This document shows positions 7,199-59,392 of a DNA stretch of 64,000 bases, one piece after another. Origin of the DNA: an uncultured Actinomycetota bacterium (GTDB taxonomy: Bacteria > Actinomycetota > Acidimicrobiia > Acidimicrobiales > Palsa-688); assembly GCA_963791545.1 (NCBI GenBank), contig CAWBSR010000004.1:41707-105706 (forward strand). Reading direction: 5' to 3'. Position numbers and translations under genes: made by a program. How positions within the stretch are numbered: position 1 is the first letter of the stretch; every line of letters begins with the position of its first letter. The notes under the pieces were generated by a model that saw only the letters and a list, made by a program, of their open reading frames with translations, had not been told where the DNA came from and did no database searches.

Positions 7199-8119
7199 AT
7201 GCCGAAGGGTCGAAATCGTCGGTTTCGGATGATCGCCGGGGTCGGCGCCCTCCTTTTGGCCGGCTGCGGGGCCGCCGGTCACGGTCCGGTGGAGTCGGCG
7301 AGAACGACGGCCTCCGCGCTGACGACGACTCCGATTACCACCGCCCCTCGGACCACGCCCACCACCGGGGCCTCATCGACGGCCACCGGGGCCTCGACCA
7401 CGGCCACCGCGGTGACGACCACCAAACCACCACCCACCCCGACAACGGCAACGCCCAAGGCACCCAGGTCACCCCGGGCGACGACGACCGGCTGCCCCGC
7501 GACGCTGGCCGGCCAGCTGGCCACCACCGGCGGCGGCTCCCAGCTGATCACGGTGGTCGCCAGTTCGACCGCGTCCACCTCGGCCACGGTGACCATCTGG
7601 CAAAAGACGGGCAGCTGCTGGAGTCAGGCCGGCGGCCCCTGGACTGGTCGGGTCGGGTACCACGGGCTCTCCATTCACCACCGCGAAGGCGACGGGACGA
7701 CGCCAATGGGCCTGTTCGCGGTCAGTTCCGCGTTTTACGGCATCGCCGCCAATCCCGGGGTGCACGGCTCCTACCACCAGTTGGTTTGCGGCGACTGGTG
7801 GGACGAGGACCCGGCGTCGGCCCAGTACAACACTTTCCAGCACGTCGCCTGCGACGCCACCCCCCTATTTGGCGCGGCCAGCGAGATGCTGTGGCAGCAG
7901 GAAGTCGCCTACCAGAACTTCGCCGTGGTCCAGTACAACACCGGCCCGGTCGTATCGGGCGCCGGTTCCGCCATCTTCGTACATGACGACACCGGGCGCG
8001 CAACCAATGGCTGCATAAGCCTGCCCCGTTCTGCGCTCATAACAGTCCTGCGCTGGCTGCAGCCGGGGCTGTCACCACACATCGCCATCGGCACTGAGAC
8101 TACGATTAACCAGACGTGA
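7199..8119 (+). CDS. L,D-transpeptidase (YkuD) family lipoprotein
   Basis: MPKGRNRRFRMIAGVGALLLAGCG carries a lipobox, followed by a Thr/Pro linker. The catalytic-type motif is SAIFVHDDTGRATNGCISL (H...GC). Confidence 0.7.
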   Translation: MPKGRNRRFRMIAGVGALLLAGCGAAGHGPVESARTTASALTTTPITTAPRTTPTTGASSTATGASTTATAVTTTKPPPTPTTATPKAPRSPRATTTGCPATLAGQLATTGGGSQLITVVASSTASTSATVTIWQKTGSCWSQAGGPWTGRVGYHGLSIHHREGDGTTPMGLFAVSSAFYGIAANPGVHGSYHQLVCGDWWDEDPASAQYNTFQHVACDATPLFGAASEMLWQQEVAYQNFAVVQYNTGPVVSGAGSAIFVHDDTGRATNGCISLPRSALITVLRWLQPGLSPHIAIGTETTINQT

Positions 8120-8291
8120 ATATCGGAACACCTGGAACACAAGTGGTTGGGTTACCGCTGAATGGGGGGCGCTGCGCTGACTGCAGCCACCAGTGCCCCT
8201 CCGTCGACCACCACGCCGGCCGCCCTCTCCCTGACCAGGGCCGGCGTGCACGGCCTCGTTCATCATCGGTTCACACAGCGGTGACAGGCGC

Positions 8292-9137
8292 TTGACGGGG
8301 ACGTGGGATGCTGCAGCGGTGATCACGCTCGGGGTCGGTTGCGTGTTCTCGTTCCGGGCCGAGGTGCCCACCGCCGCCGTCTTGCAGGTGGAGCCCCGCA
8401 CGGATGGACCGGAGGTGGTCCGCCACGATTGGTCGACGCGCCCCCTGGCGGGATCGCGTTCCTACATCGACCGGTTCGGCAACACCTGCCGCCGCCTGAC
8501 GCTGCCGCCCGGCGACCTCACCCTGCGCTTCGACGCTGATGTCCTGGTACCGGAAATCATCGACGCCCGGGACTTCGACGCCCCCGAGGTGGCGCCCGCC
8601 GACCTCCCCGATGACGCCCTGGCGTTCACTCTCCCCAGCCGGTTCTGCCAGTCCGATGTGCTGGGCGACGAGGCGTGGAAGAACTTCGGCCACCTGACGC
8701 CCGGGAACGCCCGGGTTCAGGCGGTATGCGACTTCGTCCATGAGCACATCACGTTCTGCGGCGAGAGCAGTTCACCGACCAAGACCGCGGTGGACGTGTT
8801 CCAATCGGGCCAAGGGGTGTGCCGGGACTTCGCCCATCTGATGATCACCTTCCTCCGGGCCCTCAACATCCCGGCTCGCTATGCCTTCGGCTACCTCCCC
8901 GACATCGGCGTGGCCCCGGCATCGGAGCCCATGGACTTCTGCGCCTGGACCGAGGTGTACCTCGGGGACCAGTGGTACACGTTCGACCCCCGCAACAACG
9001 AGGCCCGAACGGGCCGGGTCCTGATCGGCCGGGGCCGCGACGCCGTCGACGTGGCCATGGTGACTACCTATGGGGGCCCGCAGTTGACCGAGATGTCGGT
9101 GTGGGCCGAACCCCGCCCACCCGCCCCGGCGGCCTAG
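8292..9137 (+). CDS. Transglutaminase-like family protein
   Basis: GQGVCRDFAHLMITFLRALNIPARYAFGYL and DFCAWTEVYLGDQWYTFDPRNN supply the Cys-His-Asp core. Confidence 0.8.
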   Translation: MTGTWDAAAVITLGVGCVFSFRAEVPTAAVLQVEPRTDGPEVVRHDWSTRPLAGSRSYIDRFGNTCRRLTLPPGDLTLRFDADVLVPEIIDARDFDAPEVAPADLPDDALAFTLPSRFCQSDVLGDEAWKNFGHLTPGNARVQAVCDFVHEHITFCGESSSPTKTAVDVFQSGQGVCRDFAHLMITFLRALNIPARYAFGYLPDIGVAPASEPMDFCAWTEVYLGDQWYTFDPRNNEARTGRVLIGRGRDAVDVAMVTTYGGPQLTEMSVWAEPRPPAPAA

Positions 9138-9146
9138 ACCGCTCGC

Positions 9147-10472
9147 TCAGGCGAGGAACTCACGGGCCACGCCCAGCCACAGGTCGGTGGTCAAGCGAAG
9201 TGACTCCACGTCAATCCGCTCGTCGTTGCCGTGGAACCGGTTGGCGAACTGCTCGTAGGTGACCCCGGCGCTCATGAGCCCGCAGCCATAGGCCACTGTG
9301 CCCCGGGCTCGGTAATAGGTGGCGTCGGTTCCCCCGGTCGTCATCCGGGGCATCAGGGTGGCGCCCGGATAGGCGGTCGCCGACAGCCGTTCGAGGACCT
9401 CCCACATCGGCGTGTTGGTCGGCGAGGCGGTAGGCGCCACGTCGTGCAGGATCGTCACCTGGACCTGGTCGGCCAGGTCCCCCAGAGCCTCATCCAAGTA
9501 CCGCCGAACATCGTCGCTGGTCTGACCGGGCAGGGTCCGGATGTCGACGTCGAGGTCGACGACATCGGGTATCACGTTGGCCTTCACCCCGCCGTGGATC
9601 ACATTGGGGGAGAAGGTGGTGTGGGTGCACGCATGCCAGTACTTGGCCCGGCGGGGGTCGTCCTCCCGGGCACAGGCGTCCCACACCCGCCGCGCGTCGA
9701 GGAGGGCGGCGCGCAACTCCTCGTCGAAGTCGGCGGTCTCCACATAGGTCCGCCACGCCTCGCCGATCTGGGCCCGGGGCCGGAACTCGGACAGCCGCCG
9801 CACGACCTCGGCCGCCTTGACGACGGCGTTGTCGGAGCCGAAGGGCATGGAGCCGTGGGCGGGCGTCCCCCGAATCCGCAGCCGACGCCACGCCACCCCC
9901 TTCTCGGCCACCGTGACCGTGACCTTGGCGCCGGTGGCGGTGGGCATCACCACGCCTCCGGACTCACTCAGGACGTAGTCGGCGCCGATGGCATCCCAAG
10001 CGTGGTCGGCTAGCCATTCCGCACCGTGCTGGCCGCCCGACTCCTCGTCGGCCACCGCCAGGTACACCAAGGTGCCCGCGGGCCGGAACCCGGTCCGGGC
10101 CAGGTGCCGCACCGCCACCGCCATGGAGGCGGTGAGATTGAGCATGTCGATGGCGCCCCGGCCCCAGACCTCGCCATCGACAAGCTCCCCGCCGAAGGGA
10201 TCGCGAGACCAGTGTTCGGGCGTCACCGGGACCACATCGGTGTGGCCCATGAAACACACCGAGGGCGCTGCGGGGTCGTGGCCTTCGATCCGGGTGACCA
10301 ACGAGCTGCGGCCCGGCTGAGGCTCATAGATCTCGACGTCGAGGCCCGTCCCCGCCAGATAGCTGCGCAGCAGGTCGGTGCTGCGTGCTTCCTGGCCTGA
10401 CGCCACCGTCCCGTCGTTGACGCAGGCGTTCCTGATCAGCGCTTGCAACAGTTCTGTGACCTCACCCAGCAC
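9147..10472 (-). CDS. M20 family metallopeptidase (ArgE/DapE/succinyl-DAP desuccinylase-like)
   Basis: FMGHTDVVPV, WGRGAIDMLN, ADEESGG, and GGTDATYY near the C-terminus. 441 aa. Confidence 0.85.
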   Translation of the reverse strand: MLGEVTELLQALIRNACVNDGTVASGQEARSTDLLRSYLAGTGLDVEIYEPQPGRSSLVTRIEGHDPAAPSVCFMGHTDVVPVTPEHWSRDPFGGELVDGEVWGRGAIDMLNLTASMAVAVRHLARTGFRPAGTLVYLAVADEESGGQHGAEWLADHAWDAIGADYVLSESGGVVMPTATGAKVTVTVAEKGVAWRRLRIRGTPAHGSMPFGSDNAVVKAAEVVRRLSEFRPRAQIGEAWRTYVETADFDEELRAALLDARRVWDACAREDDPRRAKYWHACTHTTFSPNVIHGGVKANVIPDVVDLDVDIRTLPGQTSDDVRRYLDEALGDLADQVQVTILHDVAPTASPTNTPMWEVLERLSATAYPGATLMPRMTTGGTDATYYRARGTVAYGCGLMSAGVTYEQFANRFHGNDERIDVESLRLTTDLWLGVAREFLA

Positions 10473-11032
10473 CGCGTCAGGAATGGGCTCAGGCTAGCGC
10501 CGGGGCGATTCGGCCCGAACCACGCCCCGACGACCCGGTTACCGGCCGGGCACAGGGGACCCGAAGGACCCCGGCCGGCGAGGCTGACCGTTCCCGGCCC
10601 GCTCGTCAGCCGCGGGCTGACCCCTTTTCCCCCCCAGTTGTCCCCGGGCCGGGTCAGTCGTAACGGCGCCGGCGACGGGTGCCCAGCACCAGGAGGCAGC
10701 CGCCCAGGAGCAGTCCCCAGATCCTTCTGGCAGGTATTTTGGCCCTCGTCCGCCTCGATCGATGCGCTTTACCTTCGCCACGATGCCGGCACCATTCCCC
10801 CCGGTGCCGCGCCATGAGCCCCGGCGACGGGCAAAATGGGCCAGACTGAATGACCCCATCGGGGGGTCCGGACCGCATGCGGCGTCCGGGCCCGCGCCAG
10901 CGGTCCGGAGCCGGGCGCTGACCCGGCTTTCCTCATTGTCTGGCTCCCGCGGGCCGGTCGGTCGGGGATGCCCAGCATCGCGGGCCGCATGGCAACCGGC
11001 ACCAAGACAGGGGAGAGTATGAAGGACGCCAC

Positions 11033-51954: not shown

Positions 51955-54300
51955 TCAGCCGAGGCGCTCGGTCAAGACCTTGTTGACGACCTGGGGATTG
52001 GCCTTGCCCTTTGACGCCCGAATCGCCTGGCCGACGAAGAACCCCAGCAGCGCGGTCTTGCCATCCCGATACATACCGACCTTGTCGGGGTTGGCCGCCA
52101 GCACCTGATCGACGATCGCCGCGATTGCCTCTTCGTCGCTCACCTGCGCCAGGCCCCGGGCCGCGATGATCTCCTCGGGCTCGCCGCCGCACCGGAGCAA
52201 TTCCGAGAAAACCTCCTTGGCTGCGGCCCCACTGACCGTCCCCCCCTCAGCCGCCAGGATGAGGCGACCGAAGGCGCCGCCTGTCATCGGCACCCCGGCC
52301 AGATCCCGGTCATCGAGCTCATGCGGCAGCTCATTGATGATCCAGCGGGCCACCGCCTTCGCCGGCGCGCCGGCTGCTGCCGCCCCGACAAAGAGTTCTC
52401 CTGTGGCGCGGTCACCGGTCAACAACTCGGCGTCGTCCGTCGAGATCCCGTATTCGCCCGGCCATCGGGCCAGGCGCTCGGCCAGCACCGGATCCCGCAC
52501 CCGAGCCTCGGCCCGATACTCGAGACGGCTCTTCCGGGGCGGCCGGGTGGTGGCCTTGGCCGCCCGAGTTCGGGTCTCGTCCGCGGGCACCGGCGTCGGC
52601 GCCTCCTTGGGGCCGCCCTGCCACGAGGCGCCCAGGGAGACGATCCGGTTGAGTACCGGTGCGAGCGGGCCTGAGGATTCGCCGTCGAAAATGAAATAGC
52701 CGACCCGCTCCAGCTGCCACCGGCTGCCGGGCTCGGCGCCAGCCAGGCTGGCCTCGAGCATGGCGCCCTTGACGACCCGTAGGGAGTCGGCGTTGAGGGC
52801 GTCCTTGATGTCCCCGTCGGTGTCCTCGGGGCGGGCGGCGCTGAACAACCGATCGTAGAGCCGCACTTCGGCGGGCATCGCCTGCGCCGCCGACACCCAG
52901 TGAATGACGCCCCACACCTTGACGTCGGCCGGCGCCTGGCCGACCGTGCCGGGGATGTGATGGGCCCGCACCTCGACGACCTCACCGCCCACCACGCTCA
53001 CCTCGTCACAGGTGATGCAGTAGCCGTGGCGCAGCCGCACTGTCCGCCCCGGGGCCAGCCGCTGGTAGCCGGCCGGCGGTTCGAGGGCGAAGTCCTCGCG
53101 GTCGATCAGGATCTCGCGCCCGAACGGCACCAGCCGCTCGCCCCCCTTGGCCACGTCGGGGGGAAAATAGGGCCCGCTGAGTTGCTCCACCTCATCCCCG
53201 GGCCATGACGTGATCGTCACCGGGAGTGGGTCCAGCACCCCCATGACCCGCGGCGCCACCCAGTTGAGATCGTCGCGAACGCAGAACTCCAGCTTCGCCA
53301 GATCCACCGTCGAGTTGACCTTGGCCACGCCGATGAGGTCCGCGAAGGCGCGAATCGCTTCCGGGCGGTAGCCGCGGCGGCGCATGCCGGCGATCGTCGG
53401 CATTCTCGGATCGTCCCAGCCCGACACCAGGCCCTGGTCGACCAGCAACCGCAGCTTGCGCTTGCTCATCACCGTGTAATCGAGGTTGAGGCGGGCGAAT
53501 TCGATCTGCCTCGGCGGGCGGAACCCGTGGCGCTCGGCAACCCCCGTGTGGGCGACCACCCAGTCATACAGGTCACGGTTGCTCTCGAACTCCAGGGTGC
53601 AGATCGAATGGGTGATCCCCTCGATGGCGTCGGAGATCGGGTGGGCCCAGTCGTACATCGGATAGATGGGCCAGGCGTCGCCGGTTCGATGGTGGTGGGC
53701 GTGGCGGATCCGATAGAGCAACGGATCGCGCATCTTCATGTTGGGGGCGCCGAGATCGATTCGGGCCCGAAGGACACAGGCGCCGTCGGGCAGGTCGCCG
53801 GCCCGCATCTGCCGGAACCGGGCCAGGTTCTCCTCCACGCCACGATCTCGGGACGGCGACGGCTGACCCGGGGTGGAAATGGTGCCCCGGTATTCCTTGA
53901 TCTGCTCGTCGCTCGACTCGTCGACATACGCCTCGCCCGCCCGGATCAGGTGTTCCGCGAGTTCGTACATCTCCTCGAAGTAGTCCGAGGCGTACTTCGC
54001 CCTATCCCCGAAGGAGAATCCCAGCCAGGCAATATCCCGCTCTATCGCGTCGACATATTCGACGTCTTCCTGGGTCGGGTTGGTGTCGTCGAATCGAAGG
54101 TTCGTCACCGACCCGTACTGGTCGGCGATACCGAAGTTCAAGCAGATCGACTTGGCATGTCCGATATGCAGATAGCCGTTCGGCTCGGGCGGGAAACGGG
54201 TGACCACCCGACCGCGGTGGGTGCCGGCTCGCAGGTCGTCGTCGATGATGTCACGGATGAAGTCGGAGCGCACGGGCGCCGCACGGTCGTCGCTGGTCAC
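51955..54300 (-). CDS. glnS: Glutaminyl-tRNA synthetase fused to a C-terminal GatB/YqeY-like domain
   Basis: RFPPEPNGYLHIGHAKS (HIGH), NLRFDDTNP and TVMSKRKL (KMSKS). The C-terminal ~150 aa read ...IINELPHEL...GTVSGAAAKEVFSELL...IIAARGLAQVSDEEAIAAIVDQVLAANPDKV...LLGFFVGQAIRASKGKANPQVVNKVL. Confidence 0.9.
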   Translation of the reverse strand: MTSDDRAAPVRSDFIRDIIDDDLRAGTHRGRVVTRFPPEPNGYLHIGHAKSICLNFGIADQYGSVTNLRFDDTNPTQEDVEYVDAIERDIAWLGFSFGDRAKYASDYFEEMYELAEHLIRAGEAYVDESSDEQIKEYRGTISTPGQPSPSRDRGVEENLARFRQMRAGDLPDGACVLRARIDLGAPNMKMRDPLLYRIRHAHHHRTGDAWPIYPMYDWAHPISDAIEGITHSICTLEFESNRDLYDWVVAHTGVAERHGFRPPRQIEFARLNLDYTVMSKRKLRLLVDQGLVSGWDDPRMPTIAGMRRRGYRPEAIRAFADLIGVAKVNSTVDLAKLEFCVRDDLNWVAPRVMGVLDPLPVTITSWPGDEVEQLSGPYFPPDVAKGGERLVPFGREILIDREDFALEPPAGYQRLAPGRTVRLRHGYCITCDEVSVVGGEVVEVRAHHIPGTVGQAPADVKVWGVIHWVSAAQAMPAEVRLYDRLFSAARPEDTDGDIKDALNADSLRVVKGAMLEASLAGAEPGSRWQLERVGYFIFDGESSGPLAPVLNRIVSLGASWQGGPKEAPTPVPADETRTRAAKATTRPPRKSRLEYRAEARVRDPVLAERLARWPGEYGISTDDAELLTGDRATGELFVGAAAAGAPAKAVARWIINELPHELDDRDLAGVPMTGGAFGRLILAAEGGTVSGAAAKEVFSELLRCGGEPEEIIAARGLAQVSDEEAIAAIVDQVLAANPDKVGMYRDGKTALLGFFVGQAIRASKGKANPQVVNKVLTERLG

Positions 54301-54478: not shown

Positions 54479-54766
54479 TCAAGCGCGGTCGAGCTCGGAG
54501 CCGAGGATGACGCCCGCATCGCTGGCATGGGCCCGAAACGGGTGGACCACGCCACTGGCGGTCGTCAGCGTGCCGATGATGTCATTGCCGTCGATGTCGT
54601 CCGACCGGACGACGACGCCCTCACCAACTCGTTCCCGGAGGTGGGCGACCAGGTTGGCGAAGACGTCACCTCACAGGCTTCATCAGAAATGAAACCAGAC
54701 ACCGTCGATTTCCAAGTTGTAATCGCCCCACGTCGAACCGCACAGCTCACACCCGTCACCGCTCAT
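54479..54766 (-). other. 95-codon reading frame for a TRASH/zinc-ribbon-like small protein containing three in-frame TGA codons (codons 28, 29, 32); either a 27-aa ORF plus orphan coding remnant, a pseudogene, or a recoded (Sec?) gene
   Basis: ATG 54766 has GGAGGA 6 nt upstream. The frame reads MSGDGCELCGSTWGDYNLEIDGVWFHF TGA TGA S L TGA GDVFANLVAHLRERVGEG...GSELDRA, with the terminal TGA at 54479-54481, all in one frame. Confidence 0.6.
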
Positions 54767-55463
54767 GGGTCCTCCACATTCCGTCCATCATGCGCCGCAG
54801 GTGGTCGATCGACTCGCCCAGCACGTCGAGCACCTCCGTCTCCCGTCCCGGGCCGGTATAACGGGCGATGATGGCAACGGAGGCATTTCCATGGGCGGCG
54901 TCGGCCTCGTCGCTCACCCGAAAGAACTCCAGGGCTTCGGCGTCGAGCCCGGTGGCGGCCCACGGGTCCACGGCCAGCCCGGTGCCCTGCCGGAGGCCGT
55001 GGCGGCGGGGCAGGTTGCGGTCACCCATGATTTCGAGGCCGTTCACCGCGGTGAACCCGAGCAGCCAGTCGGGCTGGCGGGCCCAGCGGTCCCAATACCG
55101 GAAGGCGGCGACGGATTCCGCGCCCGGCCGGTGAAGCTCGATCGTCTCCCGGTCGAGCCCCGCGCCCGCTCCGAGACGGATGAGCAGTTCGTAGTGGTTG
55201 GTCCCCGCCGCCGGGTCCCGCACCACCTCCGACATCAGGTTCTCCACCTCAAACGCCAGAACGTCGAACTCCGGGCAGTTCGACATCACCGCCCCGACCC
55301 AGCGCGGGAACCACCGGGAGAACTTGGTCCACTCGAGCACAAACGCCCTCGCTATCGCGAGCGTCGGTGCCGAGGCCATTGACTGGAGAAAAAGGGGCGG
55401 GTCGCGAAACCAGCGCTCGATAACCAACTCCTCGACCTGGACGGCGAAGTCCCCGCCGATCAC
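54756..55463 (-). CDS. Heme-oxygenase-like / PqqC-TenA-like helical protein (putative diiron-type oxidase family)
   Basis: The helix motifs are FEVENLMSEVV, TNHYELLIRLG, AVNGLEIMGD and FFRVSDEADAAHGN. GTG 55463 overlaps the stop of the upstream 71-aa ORF (GTGA). The longer ORF 54756..55571 would overlap that ORF by 112 nt. Confidence 0.65.
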   Translation of the reverse strand: MIGGDFAVQVEELVIERWFRDPPLFLQSMASAPTLAIARAFVLEWTKFSRWFPRWVGAVMSNCPEFDVLAFEVENLMSEVVRDPAAGTNHYELLIRLGAGAGLDRETIELHRPGAESVAAFRYWDRWARQPDWLLGFTAVNGLEIMGDRNLPRRHGLRQGTGLAVDPWAATGLDAEALEFFRVSDEADAAHGNASVAIIARYTGPGRETEVLDVLGESIDHLRRMMDGMWRTHER

Positions 55464-55675
55464 CGGTTCACGCGCTCCCCAACCGTCGGCCGCCCCTCGG
55501 CACGGCGCCTCAACAACGCCGCCAGCTCGACCGCGTCGACCTGGTACTTCGTGACGCTGCGGTTGAGCCACATGACGTGGGCCCCGTCGCTGGCGGCCGC
55601 CTCGGCTACCAGATGCTCCGCCAGTGCTTCCAGCCCGCCGGCGGTCAGGCCGCAGACCTCACAAGGAATGTCCAT
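55460..55675 (-). CDS. 71-aa protein with N-terminal C-E-V-C-G motif, hypothetical
   Basis: MDIPCEVCGLTAGGLEALAEHLVAEAAASDGAHVMWLNRSV.... It is tightly packed between the reductase (3-nt gap) and the oxidase-like gene. Confidence 0.55.
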   Translation of the reverse strand: MDIPCEVCGLTAGGLEALAEHLVAEAAASDGAHVMWLNRSVTKYQVDAVELAALLRRRAEGRPTVGERVNR

Positions 55676-55678
55676 CTC

Positions 55679-56260
55679 TCATCCCTCCAGGAGTCGCAAT
55701 GCCAGGCGGCGACCGCGCCGCTGCTTCATGGCTAAGGCAATCCACAGCCGGAAGAGACAGTCGATAAGGGCCTCGTCGTCGGCCCCGACATAGATGGGAC
55801 GGAGGCCGACGCCCTCGATCACCGCCTCCACCGTCGATCGGTCGGCCTCGGGGGCGGAGAAAAACATGTCGGCCCGCTCGTCGCCGAAAACCGGCTCCGC
55901 CAGGTTCTCGCCGCCCACGGTGTTGAACGCCCGGGCGTAGCGGACTTCTGCCGGCAGCGCCGCCCGGCTGTTGGCGACCGGGGCGGCCATCTGGTTGGTG
56001 GCATCTATCACCAGCTTGCCGCGGAGCGCGTCACCGTGGCTGGCCGACAACTCGACCACCGCGGCTCCCGGCAACGCCAGGATGATCACCACCGCGCCGG
56101 CCAGGGCGTCGGGGATCGAGGTGACGGTGGCCGTTGACGGGCCGGCTACGTCGTCGTCGTCGGGATGGCGAGAACCGAACGTGACCCGATGGCCGGCGCC
56201 GGCCAGGGCCCGCCCGAGGATCCCGCCGATGAACCCGGTTCCGATGACCGCGATGTCCAT
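55679..56260 (-). CDS. NADP oxidoreductase, coenzyme F420-dependent-type (NpdG/F420_oxidored-like Rossmann protein)
   Basis: MDIAVIGTGFIGGILGRALAGAGHRVTFGSRHP, VIDATN and AFNTVG. ATG 56260 is preceded by GGTGAGGAG. Confidence 0.75.
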   Translation of the reverse strand: MDIAVIGTGFIGGILGRALAGAGHRVTFGSRHPDDDDVAGPSTATVTSIPDALAGAVVIILALPGAAVVELSASHGDALRGKLVIDATNQMAAPVANSRAALPAEVRYARAFNTVGGENLAEPVFGDERADMFFSAPEADRSTVEAVIEGVGLRPIYVGADDEALIDCLFRLWIALAMKQRRGRRLALRLLEG

Positions 56261-56457
56261 CCTCGACTCCTCACCGAGCGCCATTGAATCCCTTTTCCCC
56301 CATCCTTACAGCCGCGGCGAATGTGCGGTGGCCGTGTCGATTTGGGCGCAGCCGTTGGTTTGGGAGGTGGGAGCCGCTCGGAGCCGGTCGTCAGGCAAGG
56401 AGAGACCAATGAGCACCTCCGCCCGCTCAGGGGCTTACTCTCGGTAGCGTTACCCAG

Positions 56458-57696
56458 GTGTCTGGCGGGCATTTGTTCCAGCAGCGGGACTTTCGCTTGC
56501 TCTGGGGCGGCGAAACGGTCAGCGAAGTCGGTACTCAGGTGAGCCTGCTCGCCATCCCGCTGGTGGCGGTGCGCACCCTGCACGCCACCACCTTCGAAGT
56601 GGGCGTCCTCTCGGCGGCGTCGACGGCGGCATTTCTGCTCGTCGGGCTCCCTGCCGGGGTCTGGGTGGATCGGCTTCGCCGGCGGTGGGTCATGATCGTG
56701 GCGGACCTGGGCCGGCTCGGGGCCCTGGGTTCCATCCCCGCGGCCTATGCCCTCGGACACCTCACGCTCCTCCAGCTCTACCTGGTCGCCCTCCTAACGG
56801 GCCTGTTGACGGTGTTCTTTGACATCGCCTACCAGTCCTATCTGCCCTCACTCGTCGGCCGCGAGCATCTGGTCGAAGGCAACGCCAAGCTGGCCGGTAG
56901 CGCCCAGGTGGCCCAGGTGGCGGGCCCGAGCATCGCCGGAGTGCTCATCCAGGCCATCGGGGGCTCGTACGCGGTCGCCGTCGACGCCGCCAGCTTCCTC
57001 GTCTCCGCGGTTGCGGTGGGAGCCATCACCACGCCGGAACCGCAGCCCGCGGTGCCCGAGGGTGGCCACGGGAGGCTGCACCGCGACATCGGCGAGGGGT
57101 TGCGGTTCGTCTTCGGCCACCCTCTGCTGCGGGCCATCGCGTTGACCACCGCGACCTCCAACTTCTTCAGCGGCGTCGGCGTGGCGGTCGAGATCGTCTT
57201 CCTGGTCCGGGTTGTCCACGCCTCCCCCGGGATCATCGGGCTCATCTTCGCGGCAGGCAGCGCCGGCGGAGTTGTCGCCGCCTTGTTGGCGGCGCCCTTC
57301 GCCCGGCGCATCGGTGGCGCCCGGGCCACGATCGTCGCCATCTTCGTCACCGCCGGTGGCGTCGTCGAACCCCTGGCCAGGCCCGGGGCCGGATTGCTGT
57401 TCTTCGCCGGCGGTCTCTTCCTGCTCTCCTTCGGCAGCGTGCTGTACAACATCAACCAGGTCAGCTTCCGGCAGCGCCTCTGTCCCGACCATCTGCTGGG
57501 GCGCATGAATGCCACAATTCGATTTATTGTGTGGGGAGTGCTGCCAATAGGTGCACTCGCCGGCGGCGTTATCGGCAGCGGCCTCGGGATTCGATTCGCC
57601 CTCTGGGTTGCGGTCCTGGGCCAGACCCTCGCGGGCGGCTGGCTCCTCGCCTCGCCGCTGCGGCGGATGCGGGACTTTCCCGAGACCGAGGAGTGA
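56458..57696 (+). CDS. MFS transporter (EntS/MFS_3-like)
   Basis: FRLLWGGETVSEVGTQVSLLAIPLVAV, GVWVDRLRRRWVMIVADL and a 12-TM-like profile. Confidence 0.8.
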   Translation: MSGGHLFQQRDFRLLWGGETVSEVGTQVSLLAIPLVAVRTLHATTFEVGVLSAASTAAFLLVGLPAGVWVDRLRRRWVMIVADLGRLGALGSIPAAYALGHLTLLQLYLVALLTGLLTVFFDIAYQSYLPSLVGREHLVEGNAKLAGSAQVAQVAGPSIAGVLIQAIGGSYAVAVDAASFLVSAVAVGAITTPEPQPAVPEGGHGRLHRDIGEGLRFVFGHPLLRAIALTTATSNFFSGVGVAVEIVFLVRVVHASPGIIGLIFAAGSAGGVVAALLAAPFARRIGGARATIVAIFVTAGGVVEPLARPGAGLLFFAGGLFLLSFGSVLYNINQVSFRQRLCPDHLLGRMNATIRFIVWGVLPIGALAGGVIGSGLGIRFALWVAVLGQTLAGGWLLASPLRRMRDFPETEE

Positions 57697-57732: not shown

Positions 57733-59392
57733 ATGCTTAACTCGAAATCGGGGCGGCTCGCGGCTGCCGTACTGCTTTTCTCCGGGGTGGCGATTGCGGG
57801 TTCCGCGTCCTTCGACCGTTCCCGCGGCGCTAATGGCTCGGTTGCGGCCGCGAGTGTGGTCCGTTACCCACCGGGGACCCCTGGGATTGTCACTCCTCTG
57901 CCCGCGGGCGCCTCGTCACCGGCGCCGATTGCCGGCGCCCGCCAAGGTCCGATGGCGCCGCGACGCCTGTCCCCTCGAGCGGGACGGGCGTCAGCGCTGT
58001 CGGTCCCGGTCGCCTCGGCGTCGCCGCCGGTAGGCGCCTCGACAATGCAGCGAACCTTCGTCGGCGTCGGGAGCCTGGACAGCGCCGTCACCAACTTCGG
58101 GCACCAGTTCGAGCCGCCCGACCAAGGCCTGTGCGTCGGTAATGGATTCGTACTGGAGCCCGTCAACTCGGCCTATCGCATCTACGGGACCAATGGCCGG
58201 GCGATCGCGGGACCGTTCAACGTGAATGACCTCTTCAACGAAGGACCGGCGGAGTACACGAGCGACCCGCGGTGCTACTTCGATGCCAGCACCAACACGT
58301 GGTTCGCCATCATTCTGTTCATCAGCAGCGACAACAACTCCTCCCATCTCGACATCGCGGTCAACAACTCCGGAGACCCGACCACCCCCTGGCGGCAGTA
58401 CCGCGTGGACACGACGGAAACTGAACAGCCGGGACACGCCGGTTGCCCGTGCTTCGGTGATCAGCCCCGGTTGGGGATCGATCAGACAAACTTCTATGTC
58501 AGTGCCGACGAATTTTCCATTCTCGGACCGGAATTCAACGGGGCGCAGATCTACGCCTTCTCGAAGGCCGATCTGGCGGCGTCCTCACCGGCCCGGTTCG
58601 TGCATTTCGAGAACCTGAGCATTGCAGGAGGCCCGGCGTTTTCCGTGCAGCCGGCCACGAGCAGCGGAAACCCCGACGCCGAGTACTTCATGAACTCGAT
58701 CGACCCGAATTCGTCGCTTGACAACCGACTCGGCATATGGGCGATGACAAATCGCGACGCGGTCGCCAGCGGGCATTCGCCGGTTCTCACGAGCACCATC
58801 ATTGCCTCCGAGACCTTCGGCGTACCGCCCAATGCCCAGCAACAGGGATCCAGCCGGCTGATCAACACCGGCGACGACAGGATGCAGCAGGTCCAGTTCA
58901 TCGGCGGCAGCGTTTGGGGTGCCCTCGGCACCGCCGTGACTACCCCGGGCGACAACGCGGTGAGGGCCGGGGCCGCCTGGTTCCGCGTCCATCCAAGTCT
59001 GAATGGCGACAGCATCGATGACGCCGCCATCCAGCACCAGGGATACGTCGTGACTCCGGGGAACTATTTGTACTATCCCGCGATACAGGCCAACGCCTCG
59101 GGGGCTGCCGCCATGGTGTTCACAATTCAGTGGAGCGCGGTATTTCCCGAGCGCCGACTATGCCGTCCTCAGCCCGGGGCAGTCCAACTTCGGCCCGCCC
59201 CGCGAGGCGGCCCACGGAACCGGCCCGTACAGCCCTACCGCGGGCCGCTGGGGGGACTATTCCTATGCCACCCTCGATCCGGTCACCGGCTCGTTCTGGA
59301 TGGCCACCGAGTACGTGCCGCCGACCTCTGAGCAGACCGTCGACCGGCGCCGCAACTGGGGGACCCGCGTCTTCGAGGTAAGCGTCCGGTAG
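57733..59392 (+). pseudogene. Secreted hypothetical protein, interrupted by a +1 frameshift near nt 59120-59131
   Basis: The signal peptide is MLNSKSGRLAAAVLLFSGVAIAGSA. The ORF 57733..59331 is coding-like up to ...AAAMVFT. The continuation SGARYFPSADYAVLSPGQSNFGPPREAAHGTGPYSPTAGRWGDYSYATLDPVTGSFWMATEYVPP...RVFEVSVR-TAG is in the next frame and ends at 59392. Confidence 0.65.

Follow-up and report, generated by a model that had tools for sequence, protein, structure and literature searches.

A conserved gene module that includes a candidate selenoprotein lies on the minus strand of a 64,000-nucleotide (nt) stretch of DNA from an uncultured Actinomycetota bacterium (Acidimicrobiales, Palsa-688; contig CAWBSR010000004.1 of assembly GCA_963791545.1), which as a whole is called the window here. 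The module consists of three genes that encode a zinc-finger protein, a heme-oxygenase-like enzyme of 235 residues, and a small cysteine-cluster protein of the Ta0938 family (PF11494). The last gene is interrupted by three in-frame TGA codons, and a comparison of homologous genes indicates that these codons are probably translated as selenocysteine (Sec). Taken as a whole, the observations are best explained by a three-gene module with Sec-decoded TGA codons, a bipartite selenocysteine insertion sequence (SECIS), and a Sec/Cys relay that would serve the enzyme, a combination to which slightly better than even chances are given.

The Ta0938-family gene (54479..54766, minus strand, 95 codons) starts at 54766 and overlaps the end of the enzyme gene by 11 nt (ATGAGCGGTGA). 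Its frame runs for 27 codons and then reads TGA at 54685-54683, TGA at 54682-54680, AGC CTG, and a third TGA at 54673-54671, followed by 64 sense codons and a terminal TGA at 54481-54479. The cluster TGA TGA AGC CTG TGA (54671..54685, minus strand) holds three putatively recoded stops within five codons, and the candidate selenoprotein would read CxxC...U-U-S-L-U. When TGA is read as Cys, the frame belongs to Pfam Ta0938 (5.1e-15, residues 4-65, 56.1 bits against a cut-off of 27) with a match that spans the TGA cluster and conserves the positions of the CxxC...CCxxC metal-binding cluster. In the alignment to the archaeal structure with PDB-ID 2FQH (E 5.6e-9, residues 4-65), F-TGA-TGA-S-L-TGA stands against FCCDIC, so that the TGA codons take the places of CC..C. 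The original prediction, which was made from the letters of the window, considered the 27-residue N-terminal product as a possible peptide substrate. This is contradicted by the alignment, as the product is the N-terminal part of the 95-codon frame and the homology is continuous across the TGA cluster.

Homologous loci were collected in three ways. Loci L001-L003, L037, L038, L043, and L044 were looked up directly from homologs of the enzyme, 15 further loci are GTDB species representatives retrieved through an enzyme alignment, and another 15 are metagenome contigs that were retrieved independently by a DNA pattern of the Ta0938-like gene in which any TGN was allowed at the three motif positions. 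Motif positions 2 and 3 are TGA in 37 of 37 loci, even under the TGN-permissive pattern. Position 1 is TGA, TGC, or TGT, and its state changed at least five times on a neighbor-joining tree of the adjacent enzyme. All 49 motif stops in the first 19 loci are TGA and never TAA or TAG. The two codons between the TGAs vary while keeping the family's CC-[polar]-[hydrophobic]-C pattern, and in the roughly 60 codons 3′ of the cluster, conserved residues vary synonymously in the ordinary way. These codons evolve as coding sequence. Full-length family members elsewhere have Cys at all three positions (about 30 Cys-form representatives aligned). The TGA codons had already been seen in the original prediction, which missed their conservation at Cys positions across dozens of genomes.

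Several other explanations are ruled out by these data: a pseudogene by purifying selection across the 37 loci, an assembly error by the independent assemblies, and a double frameshift by a Ta0938 alignment that crosses the motif without an indel. As the neighboring genes and the Ta0938-like gene itself end in TGA, recoding, if any, has to be local. A second selenoprotein candidate, a split-looking CMD gene in L002, was rejected, as its parts are not in frame.

It is also conceivable that the cluster is a real, reinforced terminator. The products would then be a CxxC peptide of 27-34 residues and a separately initiated C-terminal protein of about 55 residues, and the RNA hairpins that follow the cluster would act in termination, in reinitiation, or on mRNA stability. 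Termination is known to be secured by tandem stops, and gene callers predict fragments of this kind (53-57-residue proteins and 29-30-residue open reading frames (ORFs)). However, the break falls within the Ta0938 domain and its metal-binding cluster, and two or three stops are kept where one suffices, always as TGA and exactly at Cys positions. The alternation of position 1 with Cys codons and the family pattern of the inter-stop codons speak against termination as well, and no conserved in-frame start codon is present past the last TGA. Termination with separate products is unlikely.

The cluster is followed by two RNA hairpins inside the coding sequence. Hairpin 1 (54614..54667, minus strand) begins 4 nt past the third TGA and is a long stem-loop. 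In the RNAalifold consensus, its lower stem comprises 12 bp and is followed by an inner stem and an apical loop that varies. Across 34 sequences, 85.9% of the cells pair, compared with 32-55% when the partner is slid, and the covariation score of 0.190 (at most 0.079 when slid) was reached by 0 of 500 shuffles. Hairpin 2 (54596..54613, minus strand; GUCGUCC-GGUC-GGACGAC) has a 7-bp stem and a GGUC tetraloop at 54606-54603 and is a candidate for the SelB-binding apex of a SECIS. The sequence TCCGGTCGGA is invariant in all 18 enzyme-anchored loci, which were found through the enzyme and are an unbiased sample for this hairpin. Even its synonymous sites are frozen (Val GTC 17/17, Arg CGG 18/18, Ser TCG 18/18), unlike the conserved Gly, Ser, and Thr residues in the N-terminal part of the gene, which use three to four codons each. 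The element as a whole reaches −46 kcal/mol (z = −2.67), whereas the equivalent stretch of an archaeal Cys-form gene shows no such structure (z = −0.54). GGUC hairpins with a stem of at least 6 bp occur only three times on both strands of the whole window, and no interrupted ORF accompanies the other two. The apex of the Escherichia coli fdhF SECIS, read from the genome, is GCA-GGUC-UGC and has a loop identical to that of hairpin 2, which also agrees with the loop, stem, and energy rules of the published bacterial SECIS consensus (PMC13188914, section 5).

In-frame UGA codons that are aligned with Cys residues of homologs and flanked on both sides by conserved coding sequence are the standard comparative signature of selenocysteine, and this is the pattern that the alignments of the Ta0938-like gene display. 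That all 37 loci retain TGA at positions 2 and 3 speaks for a residue other than Cys, and we strongly infer that the five codons hold two or three Sec, of which two would be neighbors in the window. It stands at even odds that one bipartite SECIS directs up to three Sec within five codons and thereby yields a Cys2Sec2-3 protein of the Ta0938 type as a dedicated partner of the enzyme. A translated TGA could also be decoded as something other than Sec, either as Cys with the help of a UCA-anticodon tRNA and a SelB-like factor or as Trp or Cys through read-through stimulated by the RNA structure. The sequences display no more than the equivalence to Cys positions and a conserved RNA structure downstream, and variants of the Sec system that recode Sec to Cys have reportedly been described in other bacteria by the Söll laboratory. 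Nevertheless, a TGY codon would suffice for plain Cys and is used at position 1 in some lineages, TGA is kept at the other two positions without exception, the GGUC hairpin agrees with the canonical SelB-binding apex, and Sec machinery exists within the class Acidimicrobiia, another order of which carries selA, selB, selC, and selD (bioRxiv 10.64898/2026.04.03.716425). Non-Sec decoding is accordingly regarded as improbable, and the use of Sec in the module genomes is plausible, if not proven, given the Sec machinery elsewhere in the class.

If the TGA codons encode Sec, the Ta0938-like gene probably represents a new selenoprotein family with an unusual coding arrangement and SECIS layout, because PF11494 is absent from the 119 prokaryotic selenoprotein families tabulated in a 2026 review (PMC13188914, Table 1) and the protein has no match among the NCBIfam models, including those of the known UxxU selenoproteins, even with E relaxed to 10. 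Closest to it in that table are UxxU metal-binding proteins and zinc ribbons of the FmdB type, some of which contain two Sec (PMC13188914, Table 1). No description of adjacent Sec-Sec or of three Sec within five codons was found in those parts of the literature text that were searched. The Cys-substituted 95-residue protein retrieves only six truncated fragments as homologs, a Ta0938 fragment retrieves one protein, and an exhaustive HMMER search with the archaeal Cys-type homolog P0127 alone yields 50 clusters among 1.84 billion representatives. Several low-G+C representatives of the family are N-terminally truncated: P0133, P0138, P0143, P0148, and P0158 begin with 'MFFCC', and P0164, P0166, P0168, and P0175 begin just after the CCxxC motif. 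These may be further genes cut by in-frame TGA codons in other lineages. P0132 (490 residues, high-G+C organism) carries an all-Cys Ta0938 domain fused to Abhydrolase_3, an architecture unrelated to the heme-oxygenase-like module.

The Ta0938-like gene does not occur alone. In each of the 37 loci whose contig extends far enough, a zinc-finger gene, the enzyme gene, and the Ta0938-like gene follow one another on one strand. This order is kept in the window and 17 enzyme-retrieved loci, in the 15 loci found by the DNA pattern, and in L038, L043, and L044, and both small Cys proteins accompany the enzyme in every locus examined, in support of the original prediction. The 167 close homologs of the enzyme come nearly all from metagenome-assembled genomes (MAGs) of Acidimicrobiales/Acidimicrobiia. 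In the window, four minus-strand genes are found at the predicted coordinates, with a reductase gene in front of the other three. Their tight coupling is confirmed by a 3-nt gap between the reductase and the zinc-finger gene, a GTGA overlap between the zinc-finger gene and the enzyme gene, and the 11-nt overlap mentioned above. The conserved unit is almost certainly a three-gene, translationally coupled module of Acidimicrobiia.

The reductase (55679..56260, minus strand, 193 residues, alternative ATG at 56284) is an NAD(P)H/F420-type Rossmann oxidoreductase. It matches Pfam F420_oxidored (5.8e-11), and the more specific identity of an NADPH-dependent F420 reductase (npdG, TIGR01915) was rejected, as the equivalog model gives 28.1 bits against a cut-off of 149.8 and only the general F420_oxidored domain is matched. 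A homolog upstream of the module is present only in L037, whose enzyme is 91% identical to that of the window, and in L042, a short contig with the window's own 71-residue zinc-finger protein. The other loci have none, nor do they contain homologs of the window's major facilitator superfamily (MFS) transporter or glutaminyl-tRNA synthetase, and an all-against-all comparison of the flanking ORFs found no gene family in more than three loci. The conserved unit therefore comprises three genes, and the reductase is a recent, lineage-specific addition outside of it. Conservation of the neighborhood, proposed as a check in the original prediction, holds for the co-occurrence of the zinc finger, the enzyme, and the Ta0938-like gene and fails for the reductase.

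The original prediction had combined all four genes into a self-contained oxidase or oxygenase made of the reductase, a diiron enzyme, and two paralogous Cys proteins, with the 27-residue peptide as a possible substrate. The reductase indeed lies immediately upstream on the same strand in the window, in the 91%-identical relative, and in L042, FMN-reductase genes occur near the module in L001 and L038, and the enzyme keeps most dimetal ligands. But the absence of the reductase from the other loci contradicts such a system, the two small proteins are not paralogs (hhalign profile-profile probability 4.9%, 19 columns), the 71-residue protein is a detached domain of the enzyme, and the 27-residue ORF is part of a longer conserved frame. 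A four-component system is judged quite unlikely. The nearby reductase genes just mentioned belong to FMN_red/Flavodoxin_2, lie on the opposite strand to the module (L001 1430-2317 and L038 2620-3276), and differ in type from the reductase of the window.

The zinc-finger gene (55460..55675, minus strand) starts 3 nt after the reductase and encodes a C2H2 protein of 71 residues that belongs to Pfam zf-C2H2_9 (PF16293; 1.5e-12, 47.7 bits against a cut-off of 29). Its consensus is C-x2-C-x12-H-x11-H(V/I)MWLNRxxTK, with C5, C8, H21, and H33 invariant in 12 of 12 aligned sequences. The protein matches residues 23-76 of PDB 4LQX, the structure of SSO2700, including the C..C, H, and HVMWLNR motifs. 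Since the zinc finger and the enzyme both match this one chain, they are taken as parts of one protein. On the archaeal-type contigs L039-L041 the two are fused, and the 304-residue gene carries both Pfam domains. By sequence comparison, the zinc-finger and enzyme genes are a split form of one archaeal polypeptide, and the 71-residue protein corresponds to the N-terminal domain of the enzyme, not to a separate small Cys partner as first supposed. P0127, which carries 'FFCCDIC', is encoded directly downstream of the fused archaeal gene with a 4-nt overlap.

The enzyme gene (54756..55463, minus strand) has a GTG start that forms the GTGA overlap with the stop of the zinc-finger gene. Its 235-residue product matches Pfam Haem_oxygenas_2 (2.3e-12) and TENA_THI-4 (5.9e-6, 26.6 bits against a cut-off of 22). 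The predicted heme-oxygenase-like fold is borne out by an AlphaFold2 model (pLDDT 94.1) that takes on the seven-helix fold and that Foldseek superimposes on 4LQX with a TM-score of 0.85. Further Foldseek matches are PqqC and, with a probability of 1.00, CADD, BesC, UndA, HrmI, FlcD, and PolF. A profile of the enzyme compared to structures ranks 4LQX (3.9e-28) before CADD (6.5e-7) and PqqC (6e-4). Five of the six dimetal ligands of CADD are kept and invariant (E79, H90, E144, D188, and H191), and D148 is invariant as well. The superfamily of heme-oxygenase-like dimetal oxidases/oxygenases (HDO) is defined by a set of three His and three carboxylates or three His and four carboxylates (PMC13108848). 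The enzyme has two His and three carboxylates, or four with D148 counted. The original description as a typical diiron enzyme thus stands for the fold and five ligands and falls short for the sixth, as Ser184 replaces a His. CADD additionally consumes Tyr27 and Lys152 as sacrificial residues (PMC9522330, PMC13108848); these positions hold non-Tyr residues and Gln159 in the enzyme.

The enzyme could simply be an ordinary PqqC, TenA thiaminase II, or CADD p-aminobenzoate synthase. Most JGI entries for its homologs bear the name 'pyrroloquinoline quinone (PQQ) biosynthesis protein C', an NCBI entry is called 'TenA family transcriptional regulator', the TENA_THI-4 score lies above its cut-off, and the profile matches the CADD and PqqC structures weakly. 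The family models reject these identities: the CADD-type synthase model (TIGR04305) gives 36.9 bits against a cut-off of 200, and the sacrificial residues are absent. The PqqC model (TIGR02111) does not list the window protein at E up to 1 and gives the archaeal fused homolog 16.7 bits against 240. Moreover, no pqq, folate, or thiamin genes recur around the module loci in the comparison of flanking ORFs, and neither do radical-SAM genes, in line with the earlier remark that PqqB/PqqE and radical-SAM genes are missing. A characterized identity is highly improbable, and the original view that the enzyme fits no known pathway is upheld. The enzyme is an SSO2700-type heme-oxygenase-like protein of the HDO/TENA/PqqC superfamily that stands outside the characterized families, and the PqqC and TenA labels are, as far as family scores can tell, over-annotations. 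The enzyme gene matches as two pieces in different frames on the metagenome contigs L019 (2362-3059) and L029 (2780-3483), which are probably sequencing-error frameshifts or decaying copies.

In the proposed mechanism, the three module proteins would act together. The directing element would be bipartite and lie within the coding sequence, with hairpin 1 as a structured spacer and the invariant GGUC hairpin 2 resembling a SelB-binding apex. Sec takes the place of Cys at redox-active or metal-ligating sites far more often than at structural ones, as the title of PMC1794560 also argues. As Sec favors such sites, the Ta0938 cluster is probably a working redox or soft-metal center, and Sec in place of cluster Cys argues that the cluster is chemically active and not a structural zinc site. 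The cluster would serve the five-ligand metal site of the enzyme as a redox or soft-metal relay. In the lineage of the window, the NAD(P)H/F420-type reductase might feed electrons to the cluster, which is the weakest step. The enzyme that the Cys2Sec2-3 protein would partner is, in this reading, of a previously unstudied kind that Acidimicrobiia have in common with thermoacidophilic archaea. The biochemical function proposed for the module is drawn by analogy and is tentative at best.

A number of points weigh against the Sec reading and the relay built on it. The distance from the TGA codons to the GGUC loop downstream is 64-76 nt, outside of the 16-37 nt that the published consensus allows between TGA and loop (PMC13188914, section 5). 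If hairpin 1 serves as a compact spacer, we infer effective distances of 22, 19, and 10 nt. Rfam searches at the gathering level and at E up to 10 place no SECIS or other family over the element and return only chance miRNA and snoRNA matches. Hairpin 1 lies at the right distance from the TGA, although its apical loops are heterogeneous and have no conserved G, and its covariation is modest in a region that is also constrained by the protein. Three successive Sec insertions would be inefficient by E. coli standards. No selA, selB, selD, or tRNA-Sec was found in the window or in approximately 300 kb of fetched flanks by tblastn with E. coli SelA, SelB, and SelD and by ARAGORN across the window and all loci; this search covered no more than about 12 kb of each genome and is therefore uninformative. 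Lastly, the functional model is by analogy only, the reductase is not conserved, and the enzyme is without one canonical His ligand (the nearly invariant Ser184 stands at the position of CADD His174).

The surroundings of the module vary. In the window, the divergent MFS gene (56458..57696, plus strand) is real, as originally predicted (Pfam MFS_1 1.2e-25, MFS_3 2.6e-23), and is EntS/MFS_3-like, with an NCBIfam EntS match (1.1e-28) below the cut-off; it provides context only. Just downstream of the module, 51955-54300 (minus strand) encodes a 781-residue class I Glu/Gln-tRNA synthetase with a C-terminal GatB/YqeY domain (Pfam tRNA-synt_1c 8.8e-97, GatB_Yqey 3.5e-39), which is not a conserved neighbor. 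A 532-residue ORF at 57733-59331 (plus strand) has a hydrophobic, signal-like N terminus and matches no Pfam family at E up to 0.001. A scan for promoters and terminators gave nothing that exceeds chance. In L039, feoC, feoA, feoB, and a YHS-domain gene (7235-10625) lie downstream of the fused enzyme and Ta0938 genes, and PadR and TrmB regulators lie upstream of the fused gene; these neighbors hint at a link to iron or metal homeostasis. Metal-transport genes near the module also include ZnuA/ABC-3 in L001 and the EntS-like MFS gene of the window besides the archaeal feoCAB and YHS genes, an anecdotal hint in the same direction. L043, a 2.4-kb contig from a MAG labeled Dehalococcoidia (GCA_035559415.1), also carries the module, with the motif C-TGA-x-x-TGA and the invariant hairpin, which is due to either mis-binning or horizontal transfer out of Acidimicrobiia.

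The module has so far been obscured by annotation. Gene callers fragment the Ta0938-like gene, so that a whole family, the third member of the module, is absent from protein databases, and the adjacent enzyme is mislabeled there as PqqC or TenA. If TGA encodes Sec, Actinomycetota would hold a new selenoprotein family in which Sec residues stand next to each other and the SECIS, set behind a structured spacer, is unusually distant from the UGAs. This would challenge the SECIS spacing rule and offer a natural test of how one SECIS/SelB cycle serves several neighboring UGAs. The orphan structures 4LQX and 2FQH would gain a common context, as their counterparts are encoded side by side.

Among known systems, the closest relative of the enzyme in both sequence and fold is SSO2700 from Sulfolobus solfataricus (PDB 4LQX), a structural-genomics entry titled 'TENA/THI-4 domain-containing protein', for which the literature search found no paper mentioning the protein. 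SSO2700 shares E79, H90, E144, D148, D188, and H191 with the enzyme and likewise has no sixth His. It is a single fused polypeptide, whereas the Acidimicrobiia version is made of two overlapping genes and has an extra loop, GLxQGTGL...PW. CADD (CT610), a self-sacrificing p-aminobenzoate synthase and dimetal oxidase, has the same seven-helix fold, and five of its six ligands can be aligned with the enzyme. It differs by a ligand His in place of the Ser and by its sacrificial Tyr27 and Lys152, and the enzyme scores far below the CADD family cut-off. Characterized HDOs mostly need no dedicated protein partner (PMC13108848), unlike the enzyme, which is always encoded with two partner proteins.

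Ta0938 of Thermoplasma acidophilum (2FQH; PF11494) shares GCxLCGxTWGDY and F-CC-x-x-C with the Ta0938-like gene. All five cluster positions are Cys in the archaeal proteins and in most other members. In the Acidimicrobiia genes, by contrast, two or three of these positions are TGA, and the genes carry the conserved RNA hairpins, which are missing from the archaeal gene. The FmdB family (TIGR02605), the metal-binding protein NF041115, MbdU, and the YHS-domain selenoprotein are likewise small Cys-cluster proteins with Sec for Cys in a CxxC-type motif. The element resembles the E. coli fdhF SECIS in being a stem-loop that lies inside the coding sequence 3′ of UGA and has GGUC at the tip of a G+C-rich stem. 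The fdhF loop follows a single UGA at a distance of about 20 nt, whereas the loop in the module lies past a three-UGA cluster with a conserved 54-nt hairpin in between. The proposed relay can be likened, by analogy only, to a rubredoxin-type domain that serves a diiron center.

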